From contig CAZSGP010000005.1 of the NCBI GenBank assembly GCA_964606485.1, positions 139,649 through 203,648 on the forward strand: a DNA stretch of 64,000 bases, in the 5' to 3' direction. Within the stretch, counting starts at the first letter, position 1. The number at the start of each line of letters is the position of its first letter. The stretch is from an uncultured Planctomycetia bacterium (GTDB lineage: Bacteria > Omnitrophota > Gorgyraeia > 2-02-FULL-51-18). This document shows positions 3,089 to 48,600 of the stretch, piece after piece. The position numbers were made by a program, and so were the translations under genes. Under the pieces are notes generated by a model. The model was not told the origin of the DNA, searched no databases, and saw only the letters and a program-made list of their open reading frames with translations.

Positions 3089-3129
3089 AGGTATGGGGCA
3101 GACTCCGTCCATCTAAAATGATTTCCAAA

Positions 3130-14029: not shown

Positions 14030-14070
14030 AGGCCCCTTTTATACGGGCGCGGTCACCGCGCCCGTACGGT

Positions 14071-23449: not shown

Positions 23450-23475
23450 TTGTCAGGGCTCCTTAAATTGAATTT

Positions 23476-23514
23476 AAAAAGAGACAAAAGGGGTAAGCGA
23501 CGTGCGCTCACCCC
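23476..23514 (-). terminator. Candidate rho-independent terminator downstream of the hisG / small basic peptide gene
   Basis: GC-rich hairpin ggggtaagcg-acgtg-cgctcacccc (23490-23514), followed on the minus strand by UUUUGUCUCUUUUU. Confidence 0.4.
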
Positions 23515-23523
23515 TTTTGATAA

Positions 23524-23616
23524 TTAGTGGTTCTTCTTATGTCTATCGCGGCGGCGGCGTTTCTTTCTTTTGTGAACCGCCATTTTATGCCGCTTTCTCT
23601 TTTTTCCGCAGGGCAT
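23524..23616 (-). CDS. 30-aa highly basic peptide, possibly a bS22-like small ribosomal protein
   Basis: Minus-strand ATG at 23616 preceded by AAGGAG, 8 nt upstream. It translates as MPCGKKRKRHKMAVHKRKKRRRRDRHKKNH, then a TAA stop. The KKRKR..KM..HKRKKRRRR pattern resembles the bS22/mS38 family. It is below the 60-aa ORF-track threshold. Confidence 0.45.
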   Translation of the reverse strand: MPCGKKRKRHKMAVHKRKKRRRRDRHKKNH

Positions 23617-23630
23617 TTGACTTGCTCCTT

Positions 23631-29661: not shown

Positions 29662-30843
29662 ATGATCAAATATTTACAAAATAAAAAAGTACAAAAAGCC
29701 ATTTACATCGTTTTAGCGGTTGTGGTGGTTGTCGGTTTTGGACTATCCGGTATTCTCATCGGGGATAAATCGGATCCCTCTCAGGCATTGGCTCAATTTG
29801 ATAATAAAAAAATCACCGTCCAGGATTATCTTAAAAGTTACCGCGCCATTGATCGTGAAATCCGCATGCACTACGGAGATCGTGCTCAGGAAGTGCGCTC
29901 GAAACTCAATTTAAAAGGTGAGGCATGGGACCGCATTCTTCTACTCCTCCATGCTCAAAAAAATAAGATTAAGACCTCTGACTCGGAGGTCGTGCAGTGG
30001 CTAATGGATCAGCCCGCTTTTTTTAGCAAAAATCAATTCGATGACACGCTCTATAAAATGTACGTTCGCAATTATATGCGGATGGAGCCCCGTGAATTTG
30101 AAGAAGCAATTCGAGAGTCGTTAACCCTAGACAAGGTGCGCGCCAAAGTGGGTGAACAGGCTTCGCTTACCGACGAAGTTTTGCGAGACCTTTATACTAA
30201 AAAATATCCCGAATACGATATCGCCTACGGCGTGATCCCTTGGGAAAAATCAAAAGTCGGGATAGAAGTTGAGGATTCTGAAATTTCAAAAATTTATGAC
30301 GTCGTGAAGGATAATTTGACCGCGCCCGCCGGGCCCGATGAAACCCAAGAGAAAAAGCTCACTCCCGATGAAGCTAAAGAACAGCTCAAGTCCACGCTTT
30401 TGAAACAAAAGGCGATTGATGCAGGCCTCACAAAATTAAAAGAAGCGAAGATCGCCATGGCCAAAGATGGCTCTGACTTTGAAAAGATTCTCGCCGATAA
30501 AGGGGTTGATCTTGTTCAAATCCAACATCTTTCCCATGGGACAGATCTTCCACTGATGGGACCTTCCATGATTGCGGAGGAAGCCGTCTCCACGCTCAAG
30601 GAGGGTGAAGTTGCGGAGCCTGTTTCTATTGGAAATGGCGCGGCGATCATTAAAATGCTCAAAAAATTGCCGTCTGACCCCAAAAATTTTGAGAAAAACA
30701 AAGAATCATTCCGCTCTGAAATGTCACTGACAAAGAAAGACGAGGAGATGAAAAAGCTTCTTGAGAAATTAAGAAGCGACTTGAAGTTGAATCTAGAGTT
30801 AATGAAGAAAATTTTTCCGGAAGACGAAATTTCTGAAAAATAA
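29662..30843 (+). CDS. Membrane-anchored periplasmic chaperone, PpiD/SurA-N-like (no clear PPIase motifs)
   Basis: 393 aa. N-terminal TM helix IYIVLAVVVVVGFGLSGILI, followed by a soluble helical domain with PpiD-like organisation. Confidence 0.45.
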   Translation: MIKYLQNKKVQKAIYIVLAVVVVVGFGLSGILIGDKSDPSQALAQFDNKKITVQDYLKSYRAIDREIRMHYGDRAQEVRSKLNLKGEAWDRILLLLHAQKNKIKTSDSEVVQWLMDQPAFFSKNQFDDTLYKMYVRNYMRMEPREFEEAIRESLTLDKVRAKVGEQASLTDEVLRDLYTKKYPEYDIAYGVIPWEKSKVGIEVEDSEISKIYDVVKDNLTAPAGPDETQEKKLTPDEAKEQLKSTLLKQKAIDAGLTKLKEAKIAMAKDGSDFEKILADKGVDLVQIQHLSHGTDLPLMGPSMIAEEAVSTLKEGEVAEPVSIGNGAAIIKMLKKLPSDPKNFEKNKESFRSEMSLTKKDEEMKKLLEKLRSDLKLNLELMKKIFPEDEISEK

Positions 30844-30847
30844 ATCC

Positions 30848-31306
30848 CTACTCGCGTTTGCCGAGTAGCCCTTTTAACTCTTTCATAAACTGATTGATGT
30901 CTTTGAACTGCCGGTAAACACTGGCAAACCGCACGTAGGCGACTTCGTCGATTTTATGAAGATGGTCCATGACGAGCTCCCCTATCTCCTTCACTTTCAC
31001 TTCCTTATCGAAACTTTTCTGAAGCTCTTTTTCGACTTTATCCACCACGGATTCGATTTTCTCCATGCTGACCGGGCGTTTTTCACAGGCTTTCACAATC
31101 CCGGAGATAATTTTATTGCGGTCAAAAGACTCGCGGCGGCCGTCTTTTTTGACGACCATTATCGGAACTTCTTCGATGTACTCGTAGGTGGTGAAGCGGC
31201 GTTTGCACTTTTCACATTCGCGACGGCGGCGGACGCTCTTGTCCTCGTTAGAGGAGCGGGAGTCAATCACCCGGTCTTCGGTATGAGCGCAGAAAGGGCA
31301 TTTCAT
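30848..31306 (-). CDS. nrdR: Transcriptional repressor NrdR
   Basis: 152 aa. [42 protein letters not shown] (zinc ribbon) plus an ATP-cone. Confidence 0.9.
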
Positions 31307-31327
31307 GGTTACGCCGAAAAGCGATCA

Positions 31328-31412
31328 GCCGATGGGTGACGGCGGTAGGCGTCCGTCTCGAAAACACCGAAGGTGGCTTTCGAACGGACAACCGCCGGCA
31401 GGACCCGTCGGC
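31328..31412. repeat. 85-bp palindromic hairpin element, copy 2 (inverted relative to copies 1 and 3), between the glyA stop and the nrdR start
   Basis: gccgatgggtgacggcggtaggcgtccgtctcgaaaacaccgaaggtggctttcgaacggacaaccgccggcaggacccgtcggc. It is the reverse complement of the 40247..40331 core. It begins 2 nt after the glyA stop codon. Confidence 0.8.
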
Positions 31413-31414
31413 TG

Positions 31415-32686
31415 TTACGCATGTACGGCCTCAGATTTGTGAGCTAGTAGCTCAGGATAAAGCGGAAACTTTTTCGTCAGCGCCTCGACTTTGTGACGAA
31501 CTTTGGTAATCTCCTCTTCGGAGTGAATATTTTTTAAGACTTCATCAATCAGCGCGCCAATTTCCGTCATTTCTTTTTCTTTCATTCCCCGAGTCGTCGC
31601 CGCGGGCGTTCCGATACGAATCCCGCCCGCTTTCATGGGGCTTTGCGTGTCAAACGGAATGGCATTTTTGTTCACCGTGATCTTTGCGCGATCGAGTGCC
31701 TCGGAACAATCTTTCCCGGTTAATCCTTTTTTATTCACGTCTAATAGCATCAAATGATTATCCGTACCGCCTGAAACCAAACGGTGACCGCGCTTTGTCA
31801 ATTCTGCAGCTAAGGCAGCTGCGTTTTTAATCACCTGGGACTGATAGACTTTAAACGACGGCTCCAAGGCTTCTTTCAAAGCCACAGCCTTGCCTGCGAT
31901 CACGTGCATCAGAGGTCCGCCCTGAAAAAATGGGAACACTTCAGAGTCAATTTTCTTGGCAAAATCAGCCTTGCACAAAATGAGTCCCCCGCGAGGGCCG
32001 CGAAGCGTTTTGTGAGTGGTCGTCGTTACAAACTCGGCATAAGGAACGGGGTTTGGGTGAAGGCCCGCTGCGACAAGACCTGCGATGTGAGCCATATCGA
32101 CGAAAAGAATCGCTCCCACTTTGTCACAGATTTTACGAAAACGTGCAAAATCAATTATCCGCGGATAGGCAGACGCACCCGCGATAATCATTTTAGGCTT
32201 ATGCTCATTGGCGAGCGTTTCAATCTCGTCATAATCAATGCGTTCATCTTGAGGGCTCACGCCATACGGAATAATCTTAAAAAATTTACCTGAAAAATTC
32301 ATAGGATGACCATGTGTCAGATGTCCGCCATGCGAGAGATTCATGGCAAGCACCGTGTCTCCGGGTTCAAGCACCGAAAAATAGACTGCCGCGTTGGCTT
32401 GAGAACCAGAGTGCGGTTGAACGTTCACGTGCTCAGCTCCAAAAAGTTTCTTCGCACGTTCGATCGCAAGGTTTTCGGCTTGGTCTACAAATTCGCATCC
32501 GCCATACCAACGTTTGGCGGGGTAACCTTCGGCGTATTTGTTTGTCATCACCGAGCCTACCGCTTCCATCACGGCAAGACTCGTAAAATTTTCACTCGCG
32601 ATCAGTTCAATATTTTCGTTTTGACGGTGCGCTTCTTTTGAAATCGATTCAAAAATTTCAGGATCTGTTTTTGAGAGAATGCTCAT
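31415..32686 (-). CDS. glyA: Serine hydroxymethyltransferase
   Basis: PLP-dependent SHMT motifs ([32 protein letters not shown]). The start is placed at MSILSK, giving an ATGA overlap with the rpiB stop. Confidence 0.9.
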
Positions 32687-33144
32687 TTCTTTTTGAACAC
32701 CTTTCTTGAAGGGGCTTCCATTTTGTTGATTTGATTCACGCGCCGTGCATGACGACCGCCCTCGAACGTAGCCGACAACCAACTCTTAACAATCAATTCC
32801 GGGTCGTCGAGCACATGCTCTGAGCCTAAAACTAAAATGTTGGCATCATTGTGTTGGCGGGAGAGCTCAGCGACATTTTTATCGTAACAAATCGCGGCGC
32901 GCACTCCCGGAACTTTGTTGGCCGCCATCGCCATTCCGTTTCCACTTTTGCAGATTAAAATTCCAAAATCCGCTTTTTTATTTGAAACGGCAAGTGCTAC
33001 TTTTTTAGCAAATTTTGGGTAGTCACAAGATTCTGCGGAGTTCGTCCCGAAATCGACCGTTTTGTATCCTTTGGAATCAAGCCACTCTTTAATTTCATTT
33101 TTTAGCGAGAACCCGCCGTGATCTGCGCCCAATGCGATTTTCAT
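32683..33144 (-). CDS. rpiB: Ribose-5-phosphate isomerase B
   Basis: 153 aa. [15 protein letters not shown]...[14 protein letters not shown]. Confidence 0.85.
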
Positions 33145-33605
33145 AAACTGCCTCCTTTAACCACGCCTTCCAAGCATTCGCGAATCATCTGCAAAACATT
33201 CTTATAAAATTGGGGCGACATATGAATAGGGTCGGGGATGCCCGCAAGCTCCACCCGCTCGTGCTCGCGGGGTGAAAACTCCGTTAACAGTTTCACTTTT
33301 TTCGCGGCCTGCGGTGACAATCGCAGAATAAAATCTCGGTGCATGCGGTCCATCACAAAAATGGCGTCCGCCGCCTGAACCATAGCCGCTGTCAAACGAC
33401 GGCTTTGATGATCCGAAATGTCCACTCCTTCATCGGACATCACGTTGACCGTTTCGTCCGTCGGGCCGTAGCCATCAGAGGCGCTGATGCCCGCCGAGGA
33501 CACTTCAAACTCTCCCGGGCGACCCTCCACCATCTTTCGGAAAAGCCCTTCCGCCATGACCGAGCGACAGCTATTTCCGGTGCAGACAAATAAAATATTC
33601 TTCAA
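33141..33605 (-). CDS. Low-molecular-weight protein tyrosine phosphatase
   Basis: 154 aa. P-loop LFVCTGNSCRSVMAEG (CX5R) and a DP motif. Confidence 0.8.
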   Translation of the reverse strand: MKNILFVCTGNSCRSVMAEGLFRKMVEGRPGEFEVSSAGISASDGYGPTDETVNVMSDEGVDISDHQSRRLTAAMVQAADAIFVMDRMHRDFILRLSPQAAKKVKLLTEFSPREHERVELAGIPDPIHMSPQFYKNVLQMIRECLEGVVKGGSL

Positions 33606-34096
33606 ATATCGACCTTTTTAGCTAAAATCTTTTGTCGGTTTTTCTCTTTAAAATCTTTAAGCGCCGTTGACAGCTTTTCATCACTAAGCGCAAGGATACG
33701 AATTGCTAAAAGTGCCGCATTGCGTACGCCCCCTGAGCCTACGCCTACGGTCGCTACAGGCGTTCCGGCCGGCATCTGCACCGTGGAGAGCAGCGAATCC
33801 ATTCCTTTAAAGGAAGGGCTTTCGATGGGAATTCCAATAACAGGCAAGTCCGTAAAAGCCGCAGAAACGCCGGCTAAGTGTGCCGCGCCACCGGCTGCTG
33901 CAATAATAATTTTAAATCCCTCCGCCTTGGCGGACTCGACAAACGCGGTCGCATCCTTGGGCGTGCGGTGAGCGGACAAAACCCGTGCCACATAAGGCAC
34001 TCCAAATTCTTTCAAGACTTCTCCGCAGGGCTTAAGCTGCTCCGCGTCAGAATCACTTCCCATTAAAATAGCTACGATTGGTTTCATAACGACCAC
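33602..34096 (-). CDS. purE: N5-carboxyaminoimidazole ribonucleotide mutase
   Basis: 164 aa. VAILMGSDSD...AGGAAHL. Confidence 0.85.
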   Translation of the reverse strand: MVVMKPIVAILMGSDSDAEQLKPCGEVLKEFGVPYVARVLSAHRTPKDATAFVESAKAEGFKIIIAAAGGAAHLAGVSAAFTDLPVIGIPIESPSFKGMDSLLSTVQMPAGTPVATVGVGSGGVRNAALLAIRILALSDEKLSTALKDFKEKNRQKILAKKVDI

Positions 34097-34099
34097 TCC

Positions 34100-35377
34100 T
34101 TATCTTAAAACTTTTGCAGCGCGATGCGCGATATCTTTACGGTAATACATTTTATCGAAAAATATTTTGTCGACTGCACTATAAGTACGCGAGAGCGCTT
34201 CGAAAATACCTTTACCGGTGCCCACCACATTCAGCACCCGCCCTCCGGCCGTCAACACGTCCCCATTTTCACGCTTGGTTCCCGCGTGAAAAACTTGGAT
34301 ATGCTTATCTTCTTTGGCCATTGAAAGCCCGGCAATTTTTTTTCCGGTCTCGTACGCGTCAGGGTAGCCTTCGGAAGCGATCACCACGCAAACACAGTCC
34401 TCGTCTTCCCACTGAAGCTCAATGTCTGACAAACGCCCCTTCACCGCCAAATCAATCACTTCCAAAAGATCATTCTTTAAACGCGGCAAAATCACCTGCG
34501 TTTCAGGATCACCCAGACGGGCATTAAACTCTAATAATTTGTAATCGGCGCCGTGAATCATAAGCCCCGCAAAAATAAAACCTTTAAACGGATGGCCGGA
34601 TGCTTTCATTTCCTGAACAATGGGGATAAATACTTTGTCGAGTAACGTTTTTTCTAGCTCTGCCGTCACGATCGGGGCTGGCGAGTATGCTCCCATGCCG
34701 CCGGTGTTTGGACCGTGATCACCTTCAAAAATGCGCTTGTGATCCTGGCTCGAAGCCAAAAGTCTCACGGTGGTTCCGTCAGTTACCGCGATGACGGAAG
34801 CTTCCTCACCTTGCAAGCATTGTTCAATGACGATTTTCTCGCCCGCTTTTCCGAATACTTTTTTGACCATGCTCAAATGAATGGCTTCCATCGCCTTAGG
34901 CTTAGACGCGGCAACCACCACCCCTTTGCCGCCGGCTAAACCGTCTACTTTGACAACAATCGGCGTGCCTTTTTGAGCCACATAGTCCATCGCCTTTTCA
35001 GAGTTTTCAAAAACTTCGAACTCCGCCGTGGGAATAGAGAGTTTCTTCATTAAATTTTTTGAAAATGCTTTCGATCCTTCAAGTTGAGCTGCGTACTGAC
35101 TCGGCCCAAAAATGCGAATACCTTCTTTTTCAAATAAGTCGACGATTCCTTCGACGAGCGGCGCTTCAGGACCCACAATGACAAGCTCAATGGCTTCTTT
35201 TTTACAAAAACGAAGCAGGGCTTCTTGATTTTTTGCAGGAATGTCTACGATTTCAGCCACTTCAGCGATACCGGCATTTCCCGGCGCCACATAAAGCTTG
35301 GTGAGCTTCGGGCTCTTTGAAATTTTCCAGGCCATCGCGTGCTCGCGTCCGCCATTTCCAATAATTAAAACTTTCAT
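34100..35377 (-). CDS. purD: Phosphoribosylamine--glycine ligase
   Basis: The start is placed at MKVLIIGNGGREHA, giving an ATGA overlap with the purM stop. ATP-grasp motifs are present. Confidence 0.85.
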   Translation of the reverse strand: MKVLIIGNGGREHAMAWKISKSPKLTKLYVAPGNAGIAEVAEIVDIPAKNQEALLRFCKKEAIELVIVGPEAPLVEGIVDLFEKEGIRIFGPSQYAAQLEGSKAFSKNLMKKLSIPTAEFEVFENSEKAMDYVAQKGTPIVVKVDGLAGGKGVVVAASKPKAMEAIHLSMVKKVFGKAGEKIVIEQCLQGEEASVIAVTDGTTVRLLASSQDHKRIFEGDHGPNTGGMGAYSPAPIVTAELEKTLLDKVFIPIVQEMKASGHPFKGFIFAGLMIHGADYKLLEFNARLGDPETQVILPRLKNDLLEVIDLAVKGRLSDIELQWEDEDCVCVVIASEGYPDAYETGKKIAGLSMAKEDKHIQVFHAGTKRENGDVLTAGGRVLNVVGTGKGIFEALSRTYSAVDKIFFDKMYYRKDIAHRAAKVLR

Positions 35378-36369
35378 TGAACCGTAACCCCTTCGCCCTT
35401 CACAAGCTCGCCCACCACCCAAGAGTGATGACCGGCCTTGCTTAAGAAGGAGATTACTTTTTGAGCGCGCTCTTTGGGTGTGACCAAAATCATTCCGATT
35501 CCCATGTTAAAGGTACGGTACATTTCTTTGGCCTGAACACTGCCCTCTTCTTCGATCCAGCGAAACACGCGGGGTATCGGCCACGAACCCATGTGAATTT
35601 TAGCGCCGCATCCTTTGGGCAACACGCGGGGAATATTGTCAAAAAATCCGCCGCCGGTGATATGCGCCATCGAATAAATCGGTTCTTTTTCTATAAGCGC
35701 TAAAACAGGTTTTACGTAAAGACGCGTGGGCTTTAAAATTTCCGCCGCGTGTTCTTTAATGAATTCTTCTTTTAAAACTTTCCGTACAAACGAAAATCCG
35801 TTGGAGTGAACGCCGCTTGAGGCGATCCCGATGATGGCATGCCCAGCTTTCGCTTTTTTTCCGTCGATAATTTTATCCTTATCCACCACGCCCACGCAAA
35901 AACCGGCAATATCAAAATCGCCGCGCGCATAAAGCCCAGGCATTTCGGCGGTTTCGCCGCCGATGAGAGCGCATCCGGATTCTTTGCAACCCGAGGCGAT
36001 GCCTTTGATTACGCTTTTCATCATCACGTTATCCAATTTTCCAATTGCGAAATAATCGAGGAAAAATAAAGGTTCCGCACCCAACGTCAAAATATCATTC
36101 ACGTTCATCGCCACAAGATCTACGCCAATTCCCTCGTACATCCCGGTTGAGATGGCGAGTTTGAGTTTCGTTCCGACGCCGTCGGTTGAACTCACAAGCA
36201 CGGGGTTTTTGTATTTCTTTGGAATCTGACACAGCGCTCCAAAGCCGCCGATGCCGCCCACGACTTCCGCACGTCGCGTGGCGCGTGCGAGTGGCTTAAT
36301 GCTTTCCACAAAGTCGTTGGCCTTGTCGATATCGACCCCCGACTGTTTGTACGTCATGCTTTTTTTCAT
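35374..36369 (-). CDS. purM: Phosphoribosylformylglycinamidine cyclo-ligase (AIR synthetase)
   Basis: MTYKQSGVDIDKAN...; PurM N- and C-terminal domains. The start is placed at the ATG overlapping the purF TGA, with GGAG 8 nt upstream. Confidence 0.85.
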   Translation of the reverse strand: MKKSMTYKQSGVDIDKANDFVESIKPLARATRRAEVVGGIGGFGALCQIPKKYKNPVLVSSTDGVGTKLKLAISTGMYEGIGVDLVAMNVNDILTLGAEPLFFLDYFAIGKLDNVMMKSVIKGIASGCKESGCALIGGETAEMPGLYARGDFDIAGFCVGVVDKDKIIDGKKAKAGHAIIGIASSGVHSNGFSFVRKVLKEEFIKEHAAEILKPTRLYVKPVLALIEKEPIYSMAHITGGGFFDNIPRVLPKGCGAKIHMGSWPIPRVFRWIEEEGSVQAKEMYRTFNMGIGMILVTPKERAQKVISFLSKAGHHSWVVGELVKGEGVTVQ

Positions 36370-37763
36370 GCACATTTCTCCGCGTGAAATTTGTTAATGC
36401 CCGAAAACGCAACCGGGTATTTTCCGCTCCAGCACGCCGTGCAGTAATCCTCTTTGGGATTAGAGACAGCTGACAGCATACCTTCAAGAGACAGGTACCC
36501 CAGTGAATCACATTCAAAATATTTTCTCATTTCATCGTGCGAGTATTTATTCGCAATCAGTTCTTCGCGAGTCGGAAAATCAATTCCGTACGCGCACGGA
36601 AAGCGGTGCGGCGGACAGCTGATCCGTAGGTGAACCTCTTTAACGCCCGCCGCGCGAAGCGCGCGAACGCGAAGCTTGGAAGTCGTTCCGCGAACGATGG
36701 AGTCATCCACCACCACGACTTTTTTGCCCTGAAGCACTTCTTTTACGAAATTAAATTTGACGCGCACCTTAAAATCACGAATGCCTTGAGTTGGCTGAAT
36801 GAATGTGCGGCCCACATAGTGATTGCGAATAATACCGTACTCTAAGGGAATACCGGATTCTTGGGAATACCCGAGTGCCGCGGAATTTCCGGAGTCCGGA
36901 ACCGGGATCACATAGTCGGCAGGAACGGGGTGTTCTTGCGCAAGCTTGCGACCTAAACGCTCGCGAACCATGTGCACGTTTTCTCCGAACACTTTCGAAT
37001 CAGGACGCGCAAAATAAACGTGCTCAAAAATGCAATGCGCTTTTTTGTCGATTTTAAGCCCGATGTGCTGAGATTTAATTCCGTCTTTTGAGATAAATAA
37101 AACTTCACCTGGTTCAATTTCGCGGATCGTCTCAGCTTCCATCATGTCGAACGCGCAGGTTTCGGAAGCAATGAGATGGGCATTTCCTTTTTTTCCTAGC
37201 CACAACGGACGAAACCCTTGCGGGTCGCGCGCCGCTACCAAAAATTGATGGGTTAGAAATACGAGCGAGTAAGCGCCCTTCACGCGATTTAAAGCCTCAA
37301 CCACGCCCTCTTCCACGTTGCGAAGGGATGGCTTTGCCATTAAATGAATAATGATTTCGCTATCCGTTGTTGTTTGGAAAATAGATCCGTAGGCTTCGAG
37401 TTCTGAGCGCAAAATGTCAGCATTCACCAAATTTCCATTGTGGCCAATGGCAATTTCGCCGCGCGAATAATCCACAAGAATGGGTTGCGCGTTTTTTAAA
37501 TTGCTAGAACCGGTTGTGGAGTAACGCACATGACCAATCGCACGGTCTCCTGTTAAACCCGCGAGTTCCGCTCCGGCAAACACGTCCTGCACATGACCCA
37601 TGCCGCGGTGAGACGCCATGCGCTTTCCGTCAGAGACCACAATCCCCGCAGACTCTTCCCCGCGGTGTTGAAGCGCGTAAAGCCCTAGATACGAGAGATA
37701 GGCTGCCTGAGGATCACCAAAAACTCCAAACACTCCGCATTTGTCTTTTAATTCGCCGTTCAT
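36366..37763 (-). CDS. purF: Amidophosphoribosyltransferase
   Basis: 465 aa, with a propeptide, then the N-terminal nucleophile CGVFGVFG, a PRTase motif and a C-terminal Cys cluster (CPPHRFPCAYGID). Confidence 0.9.
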   Translation of the reverse strand: MNGELKDKCGVFGVFGDPQAAYLSYLGLYALQHRGEESAGIVVSDGKRMASHRGMGHVQDVFAGAELAGLTGDRAIGHVRYSTTGSSNLKNAQPILVDYSRGEIAIGHNGNLVNADILRSELEAYGSIFQTTTDSEIIIHLMAKPSLRNVEEGVVEALNRVKGAYSLVFLTHQFLVAARDPQGFRPLWLGKKGNAHLIASETCAFDMMEAETIREIEPGEVLFISKDGIKSQHIGLKIDKKAHCIFEHVYFARPDSKVFGENVHMVRERLGRKLAQEHPVPADYVIPVPDSGNSAALGYSQESGIPLEYGIIRNHYVGRTFIQPTQGIRDFKVRVKFNFVKEVLQGKKVVVVDDSIVRGTTSKLRVRALRAAGVKEVHLRISCPPHRFPCAYGIDFPTREELIANKYSHDEMRKYFECDSLGYLSLEGMLSAVSNPKEDYCTACWSGKYPVAFSGINKFHAEKCA

Positions 37764-37999
37764 TTTTGAAGCCTCTCAACCCAATGCGCCGCGTGTCGCG
37801 ACATGCCTTGCCGGCCGATAGGTTCTTTTAGAATAACGTCGAGTTTCGATTCCCAAGCTCCAAGTTCTTGCACGAGCTGATCCTGTTTAAGATTTTGAGC
37901 GGCCTTTTTAGCGCTTTGAACGAGCGGCAACAATTCTCTAGATGTTGCGCCGCCTGCTTTAGCCGCAATTTGTTGTAACGTTTTAATCAACTCTTGCAT
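37760..37999 (-). CDS. Small hypothetical helical protein embedded in the pur operon (not PurS)
   Basis: 79 aa, with 4-nt overlaps on both sides (purF upstream, purL downstream). No recognisable motif was found. Confidence 0.4.
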   Translation of the reverse strand: MQELIKTLQQIAAKAGGATSRELLPLVQSAKKAAQNLKQDQLVQELGAWESKLDVILKEPIGRQGMSRHAAHWVERLQK

Positions 38000-40234
38000 T
38001 TAAGATTTCATTCTCCGGCCAATAGCCGAACGCCACGTGTGCGACAACACTTCGATCGGCGCTTCCAGTAAATTTTTAATTTTCAATTGTTTCCCGCACA
38101 CTTTTCCAATCACGCGATACGCGTAACCGGTCTTTTTAATTTCCTCTTCGGCCATCTTTAGATCATTAGATGCTACTGAAATCACCACACGGCTTTGCGT
38201 CTCACCAAAAAGAAGCGCTTCTTTCGAGAGGGCGCCTTGAGAAAGCTCGACCTCGCAACCGATCTCAGTCCCCTTGTTTGAAATGCAAGACTCAGCCAGT
38301 GCGACTGCCAAACCGCCTTCGGCACAATCGTGTGCAGACTTCATCAAATGTTTTTTCGAAAGCGTCACGAGTAAATGATTTAAGGTATTCGCTTCTTTTA
38401 AATCTAAGTGTGGCACCGCACCCGTTTTTAAATTGTGGATGACTTTTAAAAATTCGGACCCACCGAGCTCTTCTTTAGTTTCGCCAAGTAGAATTATGAC
38501 GTCGCCTTCCTCTTTAAAAAAGGAAGTGACCGGCTCACGGCCTTCGATGAGTCCCACCATTCCAATGGTCGGAGTGGGGTCAATCGCGCCGCGCGGATTT
38601 TGGTTATACAAAGAAACGTTTCCACCGGATACCGGCGTGTCAAAGGCGAGACACGCATCGCGCATGCCTTCGATGGACTTTTTAAGCTGCCAAAAAATTT
38701 CAGGATTCATGGGATTGCCGAAATTGAGACAATTCGTAATCGATAAAAGCTCAGCGCCCGAGCACGCCACGTTGCGCGCAGACTCAGCGACGGCAATTTT
38801 TCCGCCTTCGTAAGGATCCAGGTGACAATACGTAGAGTTGCAGTCGAGTGACACCGCGATCGACTTATTCGTGTCCTTAATGCGAATTACCGAAGCATCT
38901 GAGCCCGGCAAAACAGTCGTGTTCGTGCGAACCATGTGATCGTATTGTTGATAGATCCATTCCTTGCTCGCAATCGTCGGAGAGTCTAAAAGTTTTAAGA
39001 GAACCGCGTTCAGATCTCCCGCCGGTTTTAGCGACTTTAAATCAAAATTTTTATGCTGTTTGAAATAGGCGGGTTCTTTTTCTTCCCGGATGTAAACCGG
39101 CGCGTCATCGGCGAGCGGACGCGCGGGAATTTCGGCAGCAACAACGCCTTTGTCTTTGACGCGCATGAGACCATCGTCGGTCACCATGCCGATTTCTTCG
39201 GCGTGCAGATCCCACTTTTCGAAAATGTTTTTGGCTTCTTGCTCGCGGCCTTTTTTTACGATGACAAGCATGCGCTCTTGAGATTCGGAGAGCATGATTT
39301 CGTAGGGCACCATACCCGTTTCGCGCTGAGGAACACGCGCGACATCGATTTCAATGCCGGTATTTCCACGCGATGCGGTTTCACAGGTTGAGCAGGTTAG
39401 TCCCGCGGCACCCATGTCTTGAATACCCACCACACAACCAGTTTTTAAAAGTTCAAGTACGGCTTCGAGAAGTAATTTTTCCATGAACGGATCGCCCACT
39501 TGAACTGCGGGACGCTCTTTTTCAGATTCCTCGCTCAAGTCTTTTGAGGCAAAACTGGCGCCGCCCATGCCGTCGCGGCCGGTGGCCGAACCTAAATAAA
39601 GCACCGGATTTCCAACGCCTTCGGCTTTCGCTTTCACAATCTCTTCTTTTTTGGCGAGTCCCAACGCAAAAGCGTTTACGAGCGGATTGCCGTCATAGCT
39701 CTCATCAAAATAAACTTCGCCACCAACAGTGGGAACCCCAATGCAGTTTCCGTAAAATCCAATTCCTGCCGTAACTCCCGACAAGAGATGCTTCGTCACG
39801 CCAAAATTTGGAGAGTCTTTTTCTAATTTTCCAAAGCGGAGCGAGTTCATCGACATAATGGGACGCGCGCCCATCGTAAAAATGTCGCGCAAGATTCCGC
39901 CGACACCGGTCGCGGCTCCCTGAAAAGGTTCAATCGCCGACGGATGATTGTGGGATTCGACTTTAAACGCAATCACGTAACCGTCGCCAATGTCGACGAC
40001 ACCGGCATTTTCTTCGCCAGCTTTCACCAAAATACGTTTGCCGTCTTTAGGAAGCAGCTTTAGAACATTCTTTGAATTTTTGTATGAGCAGTGCTCGCTC
40101 CACATCACGCTGAAAATTCCAAGTTCCGTGATATTGGGTTCGCGGCCAAGAATGCCCTTAATCCGGTCGTACTCAGCCGGAGTGACATTGTGCTTAGCGA
40201 TAATTTCGGGTGTTATCTCAATCGTTTGTGTCAT
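38000..40234 (-). CDS. purL: Phosphoribosylformylglycinamidine synthase II (large subunit)
   Basis: 744 aa, with the two AIRS-like repeats typical of PurL and SD AGGGA upstream. Confidence 0.9.
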
Positions 40235-40246
40235 ATTTCCCTATTT

Positions 40247-40331
40247 GCCAACGGGTCCTGCCGGCGGTTGTCCGTTCGAAAGCCACCTTCGGTGTTTTCG
40301 AGACGGACGCCTACCGCCGTCACCCGTTGGC
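40247..40331. repeat. 85-bp palindromic hairpin element, copy 3, between purQ and purL, overlapping the purQ stop codon
   Basis: gccaacgggtcctgccggcggttgtccgttcgaaagccaccttcggtgttttcgagacggacgcctaccgccgtcacccgttggc. The right arm encodes the last three codons (ANG) plus the stop of purQ. The purL SD follows the left arm directly. Confidence 0.8.
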
Positions 40332-40979
40332 TAAAATCGATTCCAATATTTTTAAGCCGTCTGTCGACCCCAGTTCCGTTTCCGAAGCGCGCTCCGGGTG
40401 CGGCATCAGTCCGAACACATTACGGTTCTTATTGCAGATTCCCGCAATGTTTTCAAGCGACCCGTTGGGGTTTTCGACGTATTTCACGACGATCTGGTCG
40501 TTAACTTTTAACTCTTCAATGGTTTTGGCGTCGGCAAAATAATTTCCCTCGCCGTGCGCAATCGGAATTCTGAGCACCTCACCTTTTTTAGACTTCTTAG
40601 TAAAGGGAGTGTTCGTGGTCTCGACTTTTAAGTCGACATACTTGCAAATGAACTGGAGTGACTCGTTGCGCAACATGGCCCCTGGCAAAAGACCGGACTC
40701 GAGGAGAATTTGAAAGCCGTTGCAAATGCCGATCACAAGCTTTCCTTTTTCGGCGTGCTTCATCACGCCGTCCATCACCGGCGAAAAACGCGCAATTGAA
40801 CCCGTGCGCAAATAATCGCCATAGCTAAACCCGCCCGGCAAAACGATGCAGTCGTATTTCGTCACATCGCGTTCTTTGTGCCAGACAAAATCTGTCTCTT
40901 GATGCATCACGTGTTTTAAAACGTGGTAGCAATCGTAGTCGCAATTAGAACCTGGGAAAACAACAACGCCGAATTTCAT
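40320..40979 (-). CDS. purQ: Phosphoribosylformylglycinamidine synthase I (glutaminase subunit)
   Basis: 219 aa. [16 protein letters not shown], with the class I glutamine amidotransferase triad. Confidence 0.9.
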
Positions 40980-41215: not shown

Positions 41216-41269
41216 CTTAAGTCCCCCTTCGGTCTGAAACCACCTCCCCGGCGCTTCGCGTTCGCCTTT

Positions 41270-41307
41270 CCTCCCCTTACCAAGGGGAGGTGTCCACCTC
41301 AGTGGAC
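41270..41307 (-). promoter_or_regulatory. Two tandem GC-rich stem-loops in the 97-nt purB-purS spacer (possible terminator, attenuator or processing site)
   Basis: cctcccc-ttaccaa-ggggagg (41270-41290) and gtccac-ctca-gtggac (41292-41307). Neither is followed by a clean U-tract. Confidence 0.3.
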
Positions 41308-41314
41308 GGAGGGG

Positions 41315-42673: not shown

Positions 42674-45600
42674 TTAGGCCGCTACCTGTGTGGTGTGAAG
42701 CGCGAGAATACTTAAGATGAGCCGGGTATTAAAGACCTTTTCAGGTTCGAGTAACCTAAACCGGTTACCCGAAAAGTGAACGTCCACTAGCTTCTGGAGC
42801 AGTTCTGGAAGCGATTTTGGATCTAAATTTTTAGACAGCGCAATCACGGTCAAAAGATAAAATGCTGAGGAGGACCCATCCACCTCACCGCGCTCGACTT
42901 CGGCGTAAGGCGCCGCACTTGAAAATTGAAGCGCCTTGGCGCGATCCGGAAAATACAACGTTCCCACATTTAATTTTTCGTTTTCTAGTGAATTTAGATC
43001 GGCACTAGGCTTAAACGACAGTTTCACTCCGCTCTGGGATAATTTCTGCAAACGATTTTGAATGGATTCGGCTTGATCACTCGACGCTTCACCGTACAGC
43101 ACGAGTTCGAGCAAGCGACCTTTGACGTGATCAAACTCAAGCGACGAATTGAGAATACTGGTTAAGCTTTCCAAAGCCTTTTGTGTTTTTAAATTTCCAT
43201 TCGCATCCAAGAAAAGTTCCATCGGGACGGGGATTGTTCCCGTTTGACCCGGAGCGACTTTCGCGGAAATAGAATCAGCGACCGCTTTCACGAATGCTTT
43301 TGATTCCTCTATACTTAAATCTTCCAATTGAGCTTCAATAGAATTCTTCGCCTGCGAAGAAAGGCGCTGAGCCTCTGCTAAATCCGCCACTCCGCTTTCA
43401 AGAACCGGATAATTTTCGAGTTTAAAATTAGAATTTATTTCTGAAAGCGGCGCCGTGCGAATCTCAACCGCTTCGGCAGACTTAAGCGTCACGAGCGTTA
43501 CAAAAGCTCCTGTTAAAAGAGGAAAGAGTTTGGGGAATGCTCCGGCCTTGTGAGAGGCGGCAATGCGCGCGCCTGAAATTTTAAGCGGCATCACACTCAG
43601 CTCGGCATGATTGGATAACAAGTTTAACTGAAATTTAGTTTGGCCCCCTTCTTCCCGTAGAAATTTTTCTAGCCTTTTTTCGTAACCTTTTTTTGTGGGC
43701 TCGGTAATTTTGAGCTCTAGTTTTGTACCGGGATTCCTTTGGCTTGTGATGGTAATCGTGTGCACGATCCCGCTTTGAACCAGTCCACGAAGCTCGCTCA
43801 ACGTTTGGTCGAGGGTTAGATTGCGTTTTTCGGAAAGACGGGCGGCATTTGGGGTGTCTATAAGATTTCGATATTCATTACCAACTTTTTGCCCCTGATT
43901 GATCGTTCCATTGGTCGATGCGTTATCCCTAATCTGCCAAACTCCATTGATGAAGGATAAATGCACATGCTCTCCAGAAACACGAGGGTTATCATCCGTC
44001 ACAATATCGTTGTCAAAACCACGGCCAATCTTATAGACCGCCTGCTTAAACCCATCAAGATTATAAAATTTCTGATCTTTAGTTCTCCATAAAAATAATC
44101 TATATCCGTAAATTTGGTAGATGAAAAATTCGTTGGCCGCCGCCAGCGTGAAAGCCGGACGAGACGTCGAAGCAACAGGAACCGTTTGCGCTGGAGGGGC
44201 GGCAATCCGCATCGTTGACTCAGGTACAGGCCCAAGCCATTGTAGCGTTGTCTCCTTAGAAGCATCTTGCGCTAAAAAATTAAGGCTACAGTTGCCGTTT
44301 CCATTGTTGTGCACACTCACCTGGAATCCGTATCGAAATGGTTTTCCGAGTTCAAACGCTAAAGATGGAGCCGTCGGCCTAAAAGCGCCTTTATCATAAT
44401 CTTGAATATAAGCGTGTATGCCGGCACTGTCTTGTTTATACCAAATTTTATAAACAGCCGATCCAACCCGCACCCAAACGTCTCCCATAAATGGCGCATT
44501 CTGAATAGATAGAGGCTTGACACTGCGCGCCGGACTCTTCAACTCGCGGATCCTGCCAAAGTATTCTTTAAGCATTTGCCGAGTTTTGATGTCCTCCATG
44601 TCCACCAACTCTTCTAATTTTTCTTTAGCCTGAATAACCCTAATTTCATCTGGAGTCATCGCGACCCCAATAAACGATTTTTTTGTTTCAAAAAAATGAA
44701 CTGCGTTTAATACATCTTGCGCGGAGTATTGAAGTCCAAAAAGACTGGCGCGAATTTCAGCTGGTTTTAAAGGCGGATCGATTAATCGCAGGACACGCGC
44801 GCAAAGATGTGGGTCTGTTTCATCAAGACCCTGCGTTTTGAAAACAGTTAGAATCGTGGCCATGGCAGGCGCATTGCGCATAACATTGGTGACACCTCTT
44901 AAACCTGCCGATCTAATAAGCTCTTCCCGTATTTTTTCAAATTTATTCGCGGGATCCAAAATTTCCTGTTGGGTTTTTGGTCTATGCGTTAAAAGTGTTG
45001 AGGCAATCACTTTGAGTCGCCTATCCAGCTCTGCTGGTGCCAAATCAGCCAACCGCGATCCTTTAACCTTGTCGCGGGTAAAGCCCGTTTTACTTTGATT
45101 ATCTTTTTTGAATTCGATCATTTCTTCATATGTCTTAAGACCGGGCTTAAGGATAATTTTGTCTCGTCGTTCATTCGGAATCACAAAAATATCCCCATCG
45201 AGAATATGCTGTGAAAGTCCAGGAACTGTGAGCAACTCAATCGGATTTGCGACAACAGACTGATCAATGGCAAAACGAATGTAATAGTCCTTATTGGTTT
45301 TTCTTAAATCCTTCACCAATTCGACATATGCGAGTGGGGTTCGCGAAACACTGTAAAGCTTTCCTTCAAAAAATTGGAGCAAACCCATCTCCAAATCTCT
45401 TTGGACTTCCTCTGAGCTGATTAAAAATCCAGGAGCTCCTTCAATCTCAAAGCGCCTTAGGTCACCGGCCCATTTTTTAAATGCTTCTATTTCAATTTTT
45501 ATTTGTTTGGGTTTCGTTGCGGATTGAACGTGAAGCGCATAATCCTCTGGACTCATACCCGAAAAACGGAAATCCGCGTTGGAGCTCCCTACTACAAACC

Positions 45601-48600
45601 CTCTTAAGATGTCTTTGGCCGCTTGTACATAATTAACGCTAAGATCTGCATCGGGTATTTTAACGGGCTTGCCTTGATGGTAACGCACCCTATTGTCGAT
45701 AAAAAAATCGGAGTTAGCTTTTCTTAATTGTCTGAGATAGGTTTCATAGTCATTCGCAGATTTTCCGATGAGGAACAATGATCCATCGGAATCAATATCC
45801 AAAATTCCTCTTTCTAAGTCTCTAAAGGCCTCGGTGTAACTGGGTTTTACACTCCCTTTATAATCCACAATCTTTTCCACGAAGCCGTAGCGAACCGAAG
45901 AGCTGCTCCAATTTCCGCCCAAAGAATAATAATGTAAAAAGCAAGCGGCCGCCGACTCTCGTTGCTCGTTTTGCAAAAGCGAAGCTTTTAGCTTCAAGCT
46001 CATTCCCCTGGGACCGCTGGAATAATACTCTAACTCTGCATTCGTACCGACGACACGCAAACGCGCCTGAGGATGTAAGAGGTAACACCGGCCTTTTGCA
46101 AAGTACCTGAATACGGGCCACCTAAAAATATTTTTTTCTTTCGGGTTTGTTATGCTTGAGTCATGCAACTCATAAAATATTTTTTCGGTGTTGTAATCTG
46201 CTTCCGCTGAAAGCCGCTCTTGTGCGCCTGGTTTGAACGGCTCTCCAATAATGGCGCATTCTGCCGCATTTCTTAGTGCGATAAAAGCCCTGTGTGCCTT
46301 GCGGTTGGACGCTCTCTCGCGCACTCCCCGATTGGGCTCAGTAAAAGATTCAGGGTCCTGATAAACATCCCAATGAAAACCGTTGCTAAAAAAAACTTTT
46401 CTTTTGATCTTGCCTTTTGACACACACTCAAATTCCAATGCGATAGGATTGGAGGGCGAGCCATCCCCCACATAAGCTTTGCCGGACAGGACATTAAGCA
46501 CGAATTTGGTCGGAAAATTTCCCGCCTTTCCTCTGGGTGCGACGAGCAAATCACCCTTTTTATCTGCCGTCAGCCTGAAATTGTCTCGGATGGCTTTTTC
46601 ATTATTAAGCTCAATAACTAGGTCGCCGAGCGCTTTGCCATTTAAAATTTTGGTGTGGTCCGCCGGCTCCTCGTCGGTGTCAATGGAGTCTGACACACTA
46701 AGCAATTCTTCCCGCATTGTAAAAGCGCTTTCCATGCCAGGTAAAGGGCGCCATCCCTCAAACGCAACCTGAGAATAAGTCCACTTAGTTTGCTCAATCT
46801 CCAAAATATCGAAGCTATCTCCATTAATACTCAGCGTTCCATTTTTTTCGTTAAACAAGTAATCCGCTTGTATCTGCTGATTATCGGAAACGAGTGCTCC
46901 TAGATCGGTTTGATTCGCCTGTACAAAATTCAATAAAAGCCCATTGTCGTGAGGTTTCACACTGATAGGACAAATAAGCAACCTTTCGATTTTGCGTCCG
47001 CTTTTTTTTCCTTCCAATGTTATCCAAATAAGATTTTTCCCATCTGACGCTCTCACCCAGGATGAGTAAATCGTTGAGCTGGGAAGAGAAGTTAGGCGAG
47101 CCCCCTGTGGGGGAGTTGTTTTAACCTTACGTGCGTCGCTCGCTTTTTGAAGCACGCTGAGCTCGAACATCAGCTTAAAAAATACCGGTCGCACCAAATC
47201 GGCATTTTGACCCTTATACTTTTTTTTCTCCATACGTACTTTATCTCTGCGAATGAGAAGGGTTACGAGTTCTTTTTGATTTTTGCAATCCAGAACGCGC
47301 ATCAACTCCGACAAATCACTCGCAGAAACTCCATCTAAGCCCTTCGCTAATTCGTCTATTTTCCAGGGCGTGAAAGCTTCAATTTCACTTTTTTCTTTTT
47401 TCGTAAAGATACCGGGGTTTACCATCCAACGCGCTTTTTTATCGTGCTGGTCCTCTTCAAACCGCTTGATTTCGTCGGTCGAATAAAAAGATGAGTTTTT
47501 GTGCGCCGCGGCTAGAACAATGAGCCCTGTCTTCAAAACCGAGAGGGCATGCTCTTGGTTAATGAGTCCGCCCAAAACATATTGCTCAATAATTTTTTCA
47601 TAATATTCTGTAGCGTTGCTGTCCTTTAAGCGTCGCTGCATGGTTTCTTCGTGTGCTTTGACAGTTTCCAGCACACCGGGAATTTTTAGAAAATTTTTTA
47701 GGTCTGCCTCGGTTACACGGTAGCCCCCTAGTAAATATTGGTTCAGCAGTTCGATAGCGTTGGGCAAATAATCTGTTTTGCGCACTCCCTTTAAATCACT
47801 CATCAAATGTTCGGGGTTATAGTCCGGATGCATGAAGAGAAGAAGGGTGTGAAGAAGCAGCCACCGCCTGCCCGATGCTGTTTTTCCATCCCAGGCCATA
47901 GCATCCACGGCAATCTTGGCATACTTGGCTCTCCGATCGGGCTCTAATTCAACGTAACTCTGGTAAGCATTGGATTGCAGCGTGAGAATACTGATCTTAT
48001 CTTTGGCTTGATTTCCCACGAGCGCCATTTCAACGCTAGAAGCCGCATAAAACGCGTTAGGATTTAACGTAAAACCTTTCTTATCTTTAAGCGCTTGGAA
48101 AATCTTTCGCGTTAATTCGAGCGCAAAACCATCGTCTATCCGGTTGTCTACTCGAATGAGCTCTTCGTTGTCAAAATTGAACACTATTTGCCTGGGCCAA
48201 TTCTGGTTGTCATCAGAATCGTCCGCGGATCTACCCTTCACGTAAAGACGACGCGAGGCGGCCGTCACTAAAAGAGTGATATAGTCTTCCAAGTCGCTGC
48301 CCTTCATAAGAATTAAGCGCGCGCCTTGAGTATGCGCCAAAATATCCTTCACCGCGTTTTCGCGTTCTTTGGGATTGTCTCTTAAAGAAGAAATGTAAGA
48401 TTCGATGGATGAGCGATTTGATTCGGAAAAACTGGCTAAACGAGCGCCTTTTACAGCTTTAAGACGCTCTGTTTTCTCGGACGATGCTAATGCAAGGAGT
48501 AAAAATGATTTTTCGAGGGAGTTCTGCTGAATATCACGAAAGATCTCCGAGGATTCAAGCATTTGATGGGCATGATTAATCTCATCTAGCCCCGAAAGCA

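Follow-up and report, generated by a model that had tools for sequence, protein, structure and literature searches.

An interspersed palindromic repeat at operon junctions and within coding sequences of an Omnitrophota bacterium

A 64-kb stretch of DNA from an uncultured bacterium of the Omnitrophota (contig CAZSGP010000005.1, positions 139,649 to 203,648; referred to as the window, always meaning all 64,000 nucleotides) contains three copies of an 85-bp imperfect palindrome, which are located at 1854-1938, 31328-31412 (inverted) and 40247-40331. With a probability of roughly 0.7, these represent copies of a non-coding interspersed DNA element, either selfish or spread by mutational processes, of the same kind as Rickettsia palindromic elements (RPEs), repetitive extragenic palindromic sequences (REPs) or transposable elements of the miniature inverted-repeat type (MITEs), with an invariant core of 73 bp and with the mRNA hairpin as a by-product. 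As judged from the sequence comparisons presented here, the repeat acts on the DNA level and is indifferent to orientation and coding status, is absent at the orthologous sites of relatives, and is translated as part of several proteins. This extends the phenomenon of Rickettsia-type palindromic repeats translated within essential genes to the Omnitrophota, a phylum that is little known and for the most part uncultured, and shows that hairpins of about -50 kcal/mol are tolerated there in housekeeping operons (pur, glyA-nrdR, prmC).

Copies, core and host sites of the repeat

A repeat search grouped the three copies into one family, in which copies 1 and 3 are direct repeats with 98% identity over 81 nt and copy 2 is inverted, with 97% complementarity; a central 19-mer is matched exactly three times in the window, as against 0.03 matches expected by chance. 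With blastn-short and nhmmer, no additional, partial or degenerate copies were detected in the 64 kb. Aligned in one orientation, the copies share a core of 73 bp (1860-1932, 31334-31406 and 40253-40325) at 97-100% identity, which reads GGGTGACGGCGGTAGG(C/T)GTCCGTCTCGAAAACACCGAAGGTGG(C/T)TTTCGAACGGACAACCGCCGGCAGGACCC and differs at two positions between copy 1 and the other copies. The UUCG-loop strand is the plus strand in copies 1 and 3 and the minus strand in copy 2. The outermost 6 bp are specific for each copy, yet complementary within it, reading AGCAAC/GTTGCT, GCCGAT/GTCGGC and GCCAAC/GTTGGC in copies 1, 2 and 3, respectively. At one end position, copy 2 deviates from Watson-Crick pairing, with C.A in the mRNA and G.T on the opposite strand, and its complementarity runs 2 bp beyond the unit (CA..TG). 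All three pair changes that affect both sides of the stem fall into these outer 6 bp (columns 1, 2 and 4 of the alignment); none of the 27 core pairs varies. A preliminary description of this DNA, made from the letters alone, had already placed the three copies at the same coordinates with copy 2 inverted, and had recognized the two deviating core positions of copy 1 as well as the differing but internally complementary ends. These points were reconfirmed, with the corrections that the core measures 73 bp instead of 72, that the complementarity of the outer 6 bp is broken at the one position of copy 2, and that the labels of two ends had been swapped, gccaacgggt/acccgttggc belonging to copy 3 and gccgacgggt/acccatcggc to copy 2 on the minus strand.

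Compared with its genome, the element is rich in GC, and it folds as one long interrupted hairpin of 33 pairs on both strands. The predicted RNA folding energies are -49 to -54 kcal/mol (z-scores of -5.6 to -8.2), again on both strands, the corresponding value for single-stranded DNA is about -33 kcal/mol, and the three copies are the three most stable 100-nt segments of the 64 kb. All host genes are located on the minus strand, which had not been noticed in the preliminary description; because the orientations of the copies are mixed, the loop presented in the mRNA differs between them, being cUUCGg in copy 2 only and GAAG in copies 1 and 3. No copy is followed by a U-tract 3' of the stem (the mRNA-strand 3' sequences are GUCGGUUUUG, UGAUCGC and AAAUAGGG), and a site scan revealed no terminator-like or promoter-like site coinciding with any copy. 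An Rfam scan of the window at gathering scores returned only a tRNA, and E-value scans of copies 2 and 3 yielded either no match or 12-17 bits, compared with gathering scores of 80-135. Interpretations as terminator, promoter, integron attC site or Rfam family were all rejected on these scans; the preliminary description had not recognized the core from described repeat families, and the covariance scans assign it to no Rfam family.

The same organism was found in the Logan assembly SRR12487046 and in the ENA assembly ERZ4216102, and an assembly artefact is ruled out because a contig of the latter (L083) crosses copy 2 with a single mismatch. This mismatch (GACGGACGCC versus GACGGGCGCC) is the sole difference in the 1536 nt corresponding to 30428-31963 of the window and represents either a true stem polymorphism or a mixing of reads across copies at 1.9x coverage. 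The contig breaks in the Logan assembly were rejected as a means of counting copies: contigs of SRR12487046 break off midway through copies 1, 2 and 3, but also at about 41290 and 52600, and the breaks are therefore unspecific. Scans of sequence collections with a 19-mer (genome contigs), an 18-mer (metagenome and viral contigs) and a 28-mer arm (viral contigs) gave only chance matches of 18-24 nt, the source genome being absent or masked in these collections, and nhmmer detected no diverged copies in about 50 kb of related loci from relatives.

The neighboring genes were identified by Pfam as glyA, nrdR, purQ, purL and purB, and two of the copies are located at gene junctions. Copy 2 begins 2 nt past the TAA codon (31415-31417) of glyA (31415-32686, minus strand; serine hydroxymethyltransferase, start taken as the ATG at 32686) and fills most of the 108-nt spacer to nrdR (30848-31306, minus strand), whose ATG follows 21 nt downstream of the copy. 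Copy 3 contains the TGA codon (40320-40322) of purQ (40320-40979, minus strand; product ending ...ESILANG*) and ends 12 nt (AAATAGGGAAAT) before the ATG at 40234 of purL (38000-40234, minus strand), leaving the ribosome-binding site (RBS) region and ATG of purL intact directly 3' of the copy. Both the distance of 2 nt from the glyA stop and the overlap of copy 3 with the purQ stop, ending before the purL Shine-Dalgarno sequence, had been described correctly. The more general claim that the element is placed exactly at stop codons holds for these two of the three copies, whereas copy 1 lies in frame within the ORF for a protein of 3006 amino acids, a location that the preliminary description had not recognized.

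On the minus strand, the reading frame containing copy 1 is open between position 3112 and the left edge of the window (1-3112) and represents the 5' part of the gene for this protein (P0144). P0144 starts with a signal-peptide-like segment and shares its N-terminal domain with many giant proteins of Omnitrophota. Copy 1 reads in this frame as 26 residues between Q and L, and homologues from Candidatus Omnitrophica/Omnitrophota align on either side of it in that single frame. It occupies the linker between ...ENMLSQI and SVLITGGYH; the distance from ...ENMLxKM to (A/S)VLITGGYH amounts to 7 residues in nine of 13 homologues versus 30 in the window. In an AlphaFold model of the N-terminal 520 residues (mean predicted local distance difference test score, pLDDT, of 76), the insert is located between a long helix and the SVLITGG strand, with pLDDT values below 50 for residues 404-416. 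A fold search with the N-terminal domain of P0144 retrieved only insignificant erythromycin-esterase-like matches (E = 0.04, template-modelling score < 0.2). The observation that the element is open in five of six frames was rejected as a sign of coding adaptation, as 11% of shuffled sequences equal it.

Further copies were recovered via the peptide encoded by copy 1, corresponding to one of the five open frames, which was used as query in an exhaustive phmmer search of 1.84 billion representative proteins. Apart from the host P0144 itself, the carriers are P0145, P0146 and P0147. P0145 (3311 amino acids) contains an identical 28-residue insert and P0147 (2761 amino acids) a variant one, both in the same linker as in P0144, with which they have only the N-terminal domain in common (42-43% identity). 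P0146 (309 amino acids) is the release-factor methyltransferase PrmC (TIGR03534, 264 bits) and, compared to E. coli HemK, is longer by about 28 residues between its N-terminal and its methyltransferase domain; a metagenomic PrmC (P0149) has the same insert, which comprises about 27-28 residues or 81-84 nt. P0145 and P0146 are encoded on one NCBI contig (401,265 nt), P0147 on another (546,306 nt), and P0144 on one of 206,337 nt. The family would thus comprise at least six loci, at least four of them translated in frame, a lower bound made up of three DNA copies plus three loci deduced from proteins. A word-indexed protein search with five concatenated frames had given no match, which must be regarded as a false negative since phmmer found the carriers. 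The insert of P0147 (residues ~416-455) also contains an internal extension (...TDNRQAACLPAGRDPLRTA), which upon back-translation by eye resembles a small inverted duplication (CAGGCAG..CTGCCTG) within the element.

Numerous relatives of the PurQ protein of the window were retrieved, with identities of 75-83% and all of them originating from metagenomes of Omnitrophota. One related contig (L099) is syntenic from purB to nrdR and lacks the element at both junctions, its purQ and purL genes overlapping (ATGA) and its glyA-nrdR spacer consisting of 4 nt. The element is likewise absent from the purQ-purL junctions of two other relatives (L085 and L087). Because the syntenic relatives have empty sites, the insertions at both junctions are regarded as lineage-specific. 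Some relatives carry long hairpins of different types in their pur clusters: an unrelated hairpin of 110 nt, beginning with GTAGTGAGG, immediately follows the purQ stop of L088 (1523-1649; free energy -72, z = -9.4), and the purS-purQ spacers of L088 (736-859) and L087 (1406-1500) contain others of the ATGACAAATGACAAA and GTAGTCAG-repeat types. The GTAG heads of the pur-spacer hairpins in L087 and L088 suggest REP-type elements.

Origin of the copy-specific ends

The purQ junction offers a view on how the ends arose, because the native gene end can be read from the relatives. Their PurQ proteins end with ...ESILDNK*, ...ESILAN*, ...ESILEN* or ...ESILQN*, and the corresponding DNA of L085 reads ATT TTG GAC AAC AAA TGA. 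In the window, ATT TTA GCC AAC is followed by the inserted GGGTGACGG...GGACCC GTTGGC and then by AAA TAG GGAAAT and the purL ATG. From this alignment, the GCCAAC "terminus" of copy 3 (40326-40331, mRNA strand) is evidently the native Ala-Asn of purQ, and AAA TAG (40241-40246, minus strand), which is stranded 3' of the element ahead of GGAAAT and the purL start, its native Lys-stop. The insert accordingly reads as 79 nt, consisting of the 73-nt core plus GTTGGC (40247-40252), an evident inverted copy of the upstream host hexamer. The last purQ codon and the stop are now provided by the first six core bases (GGG TGA), altering the C-terminus from ...Asn-Lys-stop to ...Asn-Gly-stop, and the exchange of Lys for Gly is a minimal change to the protein. 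Taking the full 85 bp as the inserted unit was rejected, as their removal yields ...ILK* at purQ with loss of the conserved Asn, and a frameshift in copy 1.

The same scheme would apply to the remaining copies. In copy 1, the core plus GTTGC (78 nt, 26 codons) would be situated between C and TG of a native CAA CTG TCG, which restores an in-frame ...EKQLSVLITGG; the AGCAAC at 1933-1938 on the mRNA strand probably belongs to the host and GTTGCT at 1854-1859 would be its inverted copy. The complementarity of copy 2 covers 8 bp, giving 73+8 = 81. That the copy-specific ends are inverted copies of the flank can be demonstrated at the purQ junction, and we infer the same for the other sites. Because the left end at purQ is native, the variable but complementary ends are read as products of fold-back or template switching rather than of compensatory RNA evolution. 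Inverted flank copying would explain why the multi-base "compensatory" changes are restricted to the stem ends, the core being invariant. Neither insertion into short palindromic targets nor compensatory maintenance of a stem, the two possibilities considered in the preliminary description, fits as written, with a native left end and an inverted copy as right end at purQ. Variable-length inverted copies of a flank are known to result from fold-back priming or short-range template switching (PMC8794818, PMC7202029).

The proposed course of events would start with the element being copied into transcribed housekeeping DNA irrespective of orientation or coding status, by mobilization in trans or by template-switch copying, and being retained where the host tolerates it, as in the glyA-nrdR spacer, in the last codons of purQ and in presumed surface linkers of P0144, two giant paralogues and PrmC, where it is in frame. 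At purQ, the insertion would have shifted the intact purL RBS by 79 nt downstream. The ends differing between the copies (5-8 bp) would lie outside the transposed unit, the host flank being copied in inverted orientation and the stem thereby lengthened, most simply through fold-back priming on the hairpin or a short-range template switch there, either during insertion or afterwards. Since the added length is variable (73+5, +6, +8), only sums divisible by three would persist in ORFs. Selection would purge disruptive copies, leaving those at 3' gene ends, in spacers and in protein linkers (with a length that is a multiple of three), and the hairpin in the mRNA may secondarily alter mRNA decay or the translational coupling of purQ and purL.

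A related process may be visible elsewhere in the window. The ORF at 42674-57130 (minus strand) codes for a protein of 4818 amino acids, which combines AprA-like methyltransferase, AceK kinase/phosphatase and FHA domains and is a paralogue of the copy-1 host in its N-terminal domain (repeat 2827-2892 / 56869-56934); it is followed by a second giant ORF at 57143 to beyond 64000 (minus strand; more than 2276 amino acids), and database look-ups found neither of the two on record. The linker of the 4818-residue protein that is paralogous to the copy-1 site contains an inverted repeat (55750-55767 / 55773-55790, minus strand) whose 18-bp arms match perfectly and enclose a loop of 5 nt. One arm of it consists of the native V-I-F-I-T-G-G codons, and the other, an inverted copy of these, contributes D-S-R-Y-K-N-E in frame to the enlarged linker. 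Next to it lies another inverted repeat (77%), and the entire region (55750-55829) looks like a de novo template-switch duplication within coding DNA. The inverted copy of the VIFITGG codons is counted as an independent sign of the fold-back process in the same genome. Moreover, in a homologue from another contig (P0010, L098), the linker that houses copy 1 in the window (here ENIQREW..SVLITGG) contains a different palindrome of about 60 nt, likewise in frame (GGATCGAGGAT.../...ATCCTCGATCC; free energy -45.5, z = -7.7), of which a second in-frame copy occurs elsewhere in the protein (residues 75-100), and three other homologues (P0001, P0004 and P0011) also exhibit extra residues at the linker. 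The copy-1 linker may be a hot spot for palindromes across the Omnitrophota, and the insertion or birth of hairpins at tolerated spots appears to be general in this lineage.

These observations can be combined into a tentative proposal, against which the odds are moderately stacked: the element would have no fixed ends, the core inserting 3' of a loose host motif (RSCRAY) and the stem being extended by an inverted host copy of 5-8 nt, which would amount to an "inverted target-site duplication" by fold-back priming or template switching instead of a classical direct duplication. The same process might generate hairpins de novo, as in the 18-bp VIFITGG copy, and turn one linker of the giant Omnitrophota proteins into a recurrent site of landing or birth. 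If inverted flank copying proved to be general, it would be a tangible example of a mobile hairpin shaped by template switching, and would warn against taking paired changes at stem ends as evidence of selection at the RNA level.

Alternative explanations and known repeat systems

Several observations weigh against the interpretation as an interspersed DNA element. The approximately 40 ORFs of the window include no transposase, RAYT, Y1 transposase, integrase, recombinase or HUH nuclease, and no direct target-site duplication was found at any copy (flanks caaatcgaaa/gtcggttttg, atcgatttta/aaatagggaa and aagcgatca/tgttacgcat) or in the reconstructed empty site of purQ. The case for inverted flanks depends on the one junction at purQ, and the in-frame 78 nt of copy 1 require a 5-nt copy plus one base that is complementary by chance. 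The outer hexamers AGCAAC, GCCAAC and GCCGAT, with mutual identities of 4/6, 4/6 and 2/6, are more alike than random flanks, implying either a target preference (RSCRAY) or a partly element-borne origin. P0145, P0146 and P0147 may derive from a genome other than that of the window. The three giant paralogues share the linker position and identical junction residues, which gene conversion explains at least as well as repeated insertion, and the core is 100% conserved as protein in paralogues of only 42-43% identity, for which selection is another possible reason.

Part of this evidence leads to an alternative without any transposition, in which short similar sequences, such as RSCRAY-type microhomologies or the ...ENML / VLITGG flanks of the paralogues, undergo ectopic template switching or gene conversion and the repeat thereby spreads, as a self-propagating by-product of replication or repair. 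It would account for the lack of both target-site duplications and a transposase in the window, the mutual similarity of the flanking hexamers, and the identical junction residues of the three paralogues; the apparent de novo inverted duplication of native codons in the linker of the 4818-residue protein and the different palindromes of other homologues at the same linker point in the same direction. However, the copies reside in contexts as unrelated as the glyA-nrdR spacer, the purQ end and PrmC, without obvious flank homology beyond about 4 nt, and the 73-bp core has sharp boundaries and is the same in every copy, as would be the case for a defined mobile unit. This alternative is judged to be rather improbable. 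The preliminary description had favored a dedicated RNA device between co-transcribed genes, namely an mRNA-stabilizing hairpin, attenuator or RNase site with a behavior like that of REPs and bacterial interspersed mosaic elements (BIMEs). On this view, as considered here, the hairpin would be kept by selection at operon junctions and would stabilize the upstream mRNA, serve as RNase III/E site, or tune the coupling of glyA with nrdR and of purQ with purL. The REP-like, interspersed nature of the palindrome is indeed borne out, two of the three window copies adjoining 3' ORF ends in co-oriented operons. An RNA function would also agree with the rank of the copies as the top three 100-nt segments for stability (about -50 kcal/mol), with the juxtaposition of the new purQ stop and the purL RBS at the stem base of copy 3, and with the unrelated long pur-spacer hairpins of relatives, including the one right after the purQ stop of L088; moreover, REPs as well as ERIC and Correia elements are known to affect mRNA fate (PMC3733652, PMC10969869). 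It is contradicted by the at least four copies which are translated in frame within ORFs, by the mixed orientation relative to transcription, with the UUCG tetraloop occurring in the mRNA for one of three copies, by the missing U-tracts, by the empty state of the same junctions in syntenic relatives, and by a core without covariation. A dedicated intercistronic device therefore remains unsupported and is regarded as unlikely.

A role as a site for site-specific recombination or protein binding on the DNA, like an integron attC or dif-like site or the IHF/gyrase sites of BIMEs, is highly improbable. Integron attC sites are characterized by R''/R' boxes of the type RYYYAAC ... GTTRRRY, a uniform orientation at cassette ends, and a nearby integrase. 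The imperfect palindrome is of attC-like length, and in copies 1 and 3 its end regions contain ...AAC / GTT..., but copy 2 has GAT/GTC instead, the orientations are mixed, the copies lie within core operons and ORFs rather than at cassette boundaries, and neither an integrase nor a recombinase is encoded in the window.

The interpretation as an interspersed DNA element is in line with the behavior of several known repeat systems. RPEs are palindromic repeats fused in frame into unrelated housekeeping genes, adding 20-50 amino acids in loops, and also occur between genes (Ogata et al., 2000, cited from PMC10969869 and PMC3733652). The element resembles them as a short palindromic interspersed repeat without a transposase of its own, which is present in frame in unrelated genes and also intergenically; in-frame copies with the ORF continuing on both sides were found in P0144 and in the PrmC proteins P0146 and P0149. 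It differs from RPEs in occurring in Omnitrophota instead of Rickettsiales, in its length of 73-85 bp versus about 100-150 bp, and in ends that vary by copy, one of them matching host sequence; note that the comparison refers to behavior and not to sequence. REPs are found near 3' ORF ends between co-oriented genes, may donate stop codons and lack target-site duplications (Di Nocera et al., 2013, PMC3733652), and intragenic REP dimers encode 20-30 amino acids and are abundant in Opitutus terrae, a bacterium of the Planctomycetes-Verrucomicrobia-Chlamydiae group, and in Rickettsia conorii (PMC3733652). All the behavior of the present element, including the donated stop codon and the in-frame copies, has precedents among REPs and RPEs. 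REP units are 20-40 bp long, with a stem of 6-13 bp, a loop of 2-5 nt and a terminal unpaired GTAG/CGTC tag (PMC3733652), and REPIN-RAYT systems reach tens to hundreds of copies per genome with a cognate RAYT (Y1 HUH) gene flanked by the repeat (PMC3337134). In contrast, the element forms a single interrupted hairpin of 85 bp (73-bp core) with 33 pairs, whose arms, on visual inspection of their sequences, contain no hairpins of their own, and no RAYT gene is among the ORFs of the window. GTAG and CGTC do occur in its internal loop (GGCGGTAGGCGTCCGTC), GTAG being unpaired in the predicted fold, but in a non-terminal position, and chance alone would be expected to yield such a 4-mer in 73 bp.

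In MITEs such as Correia/NEMIS, ERIC and Chunjie, the terminal inverted repeats are fixed, direct target-site duplications are present and the sequence is usually AT-rich; the transcripts of ERIC and Correia elements are targets of RNases (PMC10969869). The element is similarly small (85 bp, i.e., below 500 bp), multi-copy and non-autonomous, forms a long hairpin in transcripts and sits in operons without breaking them, but it is GC-rich, lacks direct duplications and has copy-specific ends, the outermost 6 bp differing. Finally, template-switch (quasipalindrome) mutations are known to create or perfect hairpin stems (PMC8794818, PMC7202029). They account for the complementary differences at the stem ends and for the 18-bp inverted copy at 55750-55790, whereas template switching alone leaves the identical 73-bp core at unrelated loci unexplained. 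In its architecture, the element is neither a canonical REP, for which it is too long and its tag-like motifs too internal, nor a classical MITE. The repeats are thus regarded as probably a new family, whose behavior is already known from RPEs and REPs and for which the inverted copying of host flanks is possibly novel. In practical terms, short-read assemblies break at each copy, the translated copies appear as spurious "insertions" in protein alignments, and the element is open to misreading as a regulatory RNA with compensatory evolution.

Neighboring genes and other hairpins

The remainder of the window consists of housekeeping genes, comprising an lpx cluster, bamA, dnaB, genes for ribosomal proteins, prs, glmU, clpX, ftsH, hisG and purEDMF. 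Within the 236-nt "spacer" between purF and purL (37764-37999) lies an ORF of about 78 codons (MQELIKTLQQIAAKAGG...), which is missing from the ORF list. The GC-rich purB-purS spacer of 98 nt (41217-41314) contains two small perfect hairpins (GTCCACTGAGGTGGAC and CCTCCCCTTGGTAAGGGGAGG), and two Logan contigs of the same organism end in it. Two further hairpins are ordinary and unrelated to the repeat family, namely a GC-rich one of 14 bp in the rplI-rpsR spacer (14030-14070) and a terminator-like one downstream of ftsH (23450-23630), which reads GGGGTGAGCG...CGCTTACCCC and is followed by TTTTGT.

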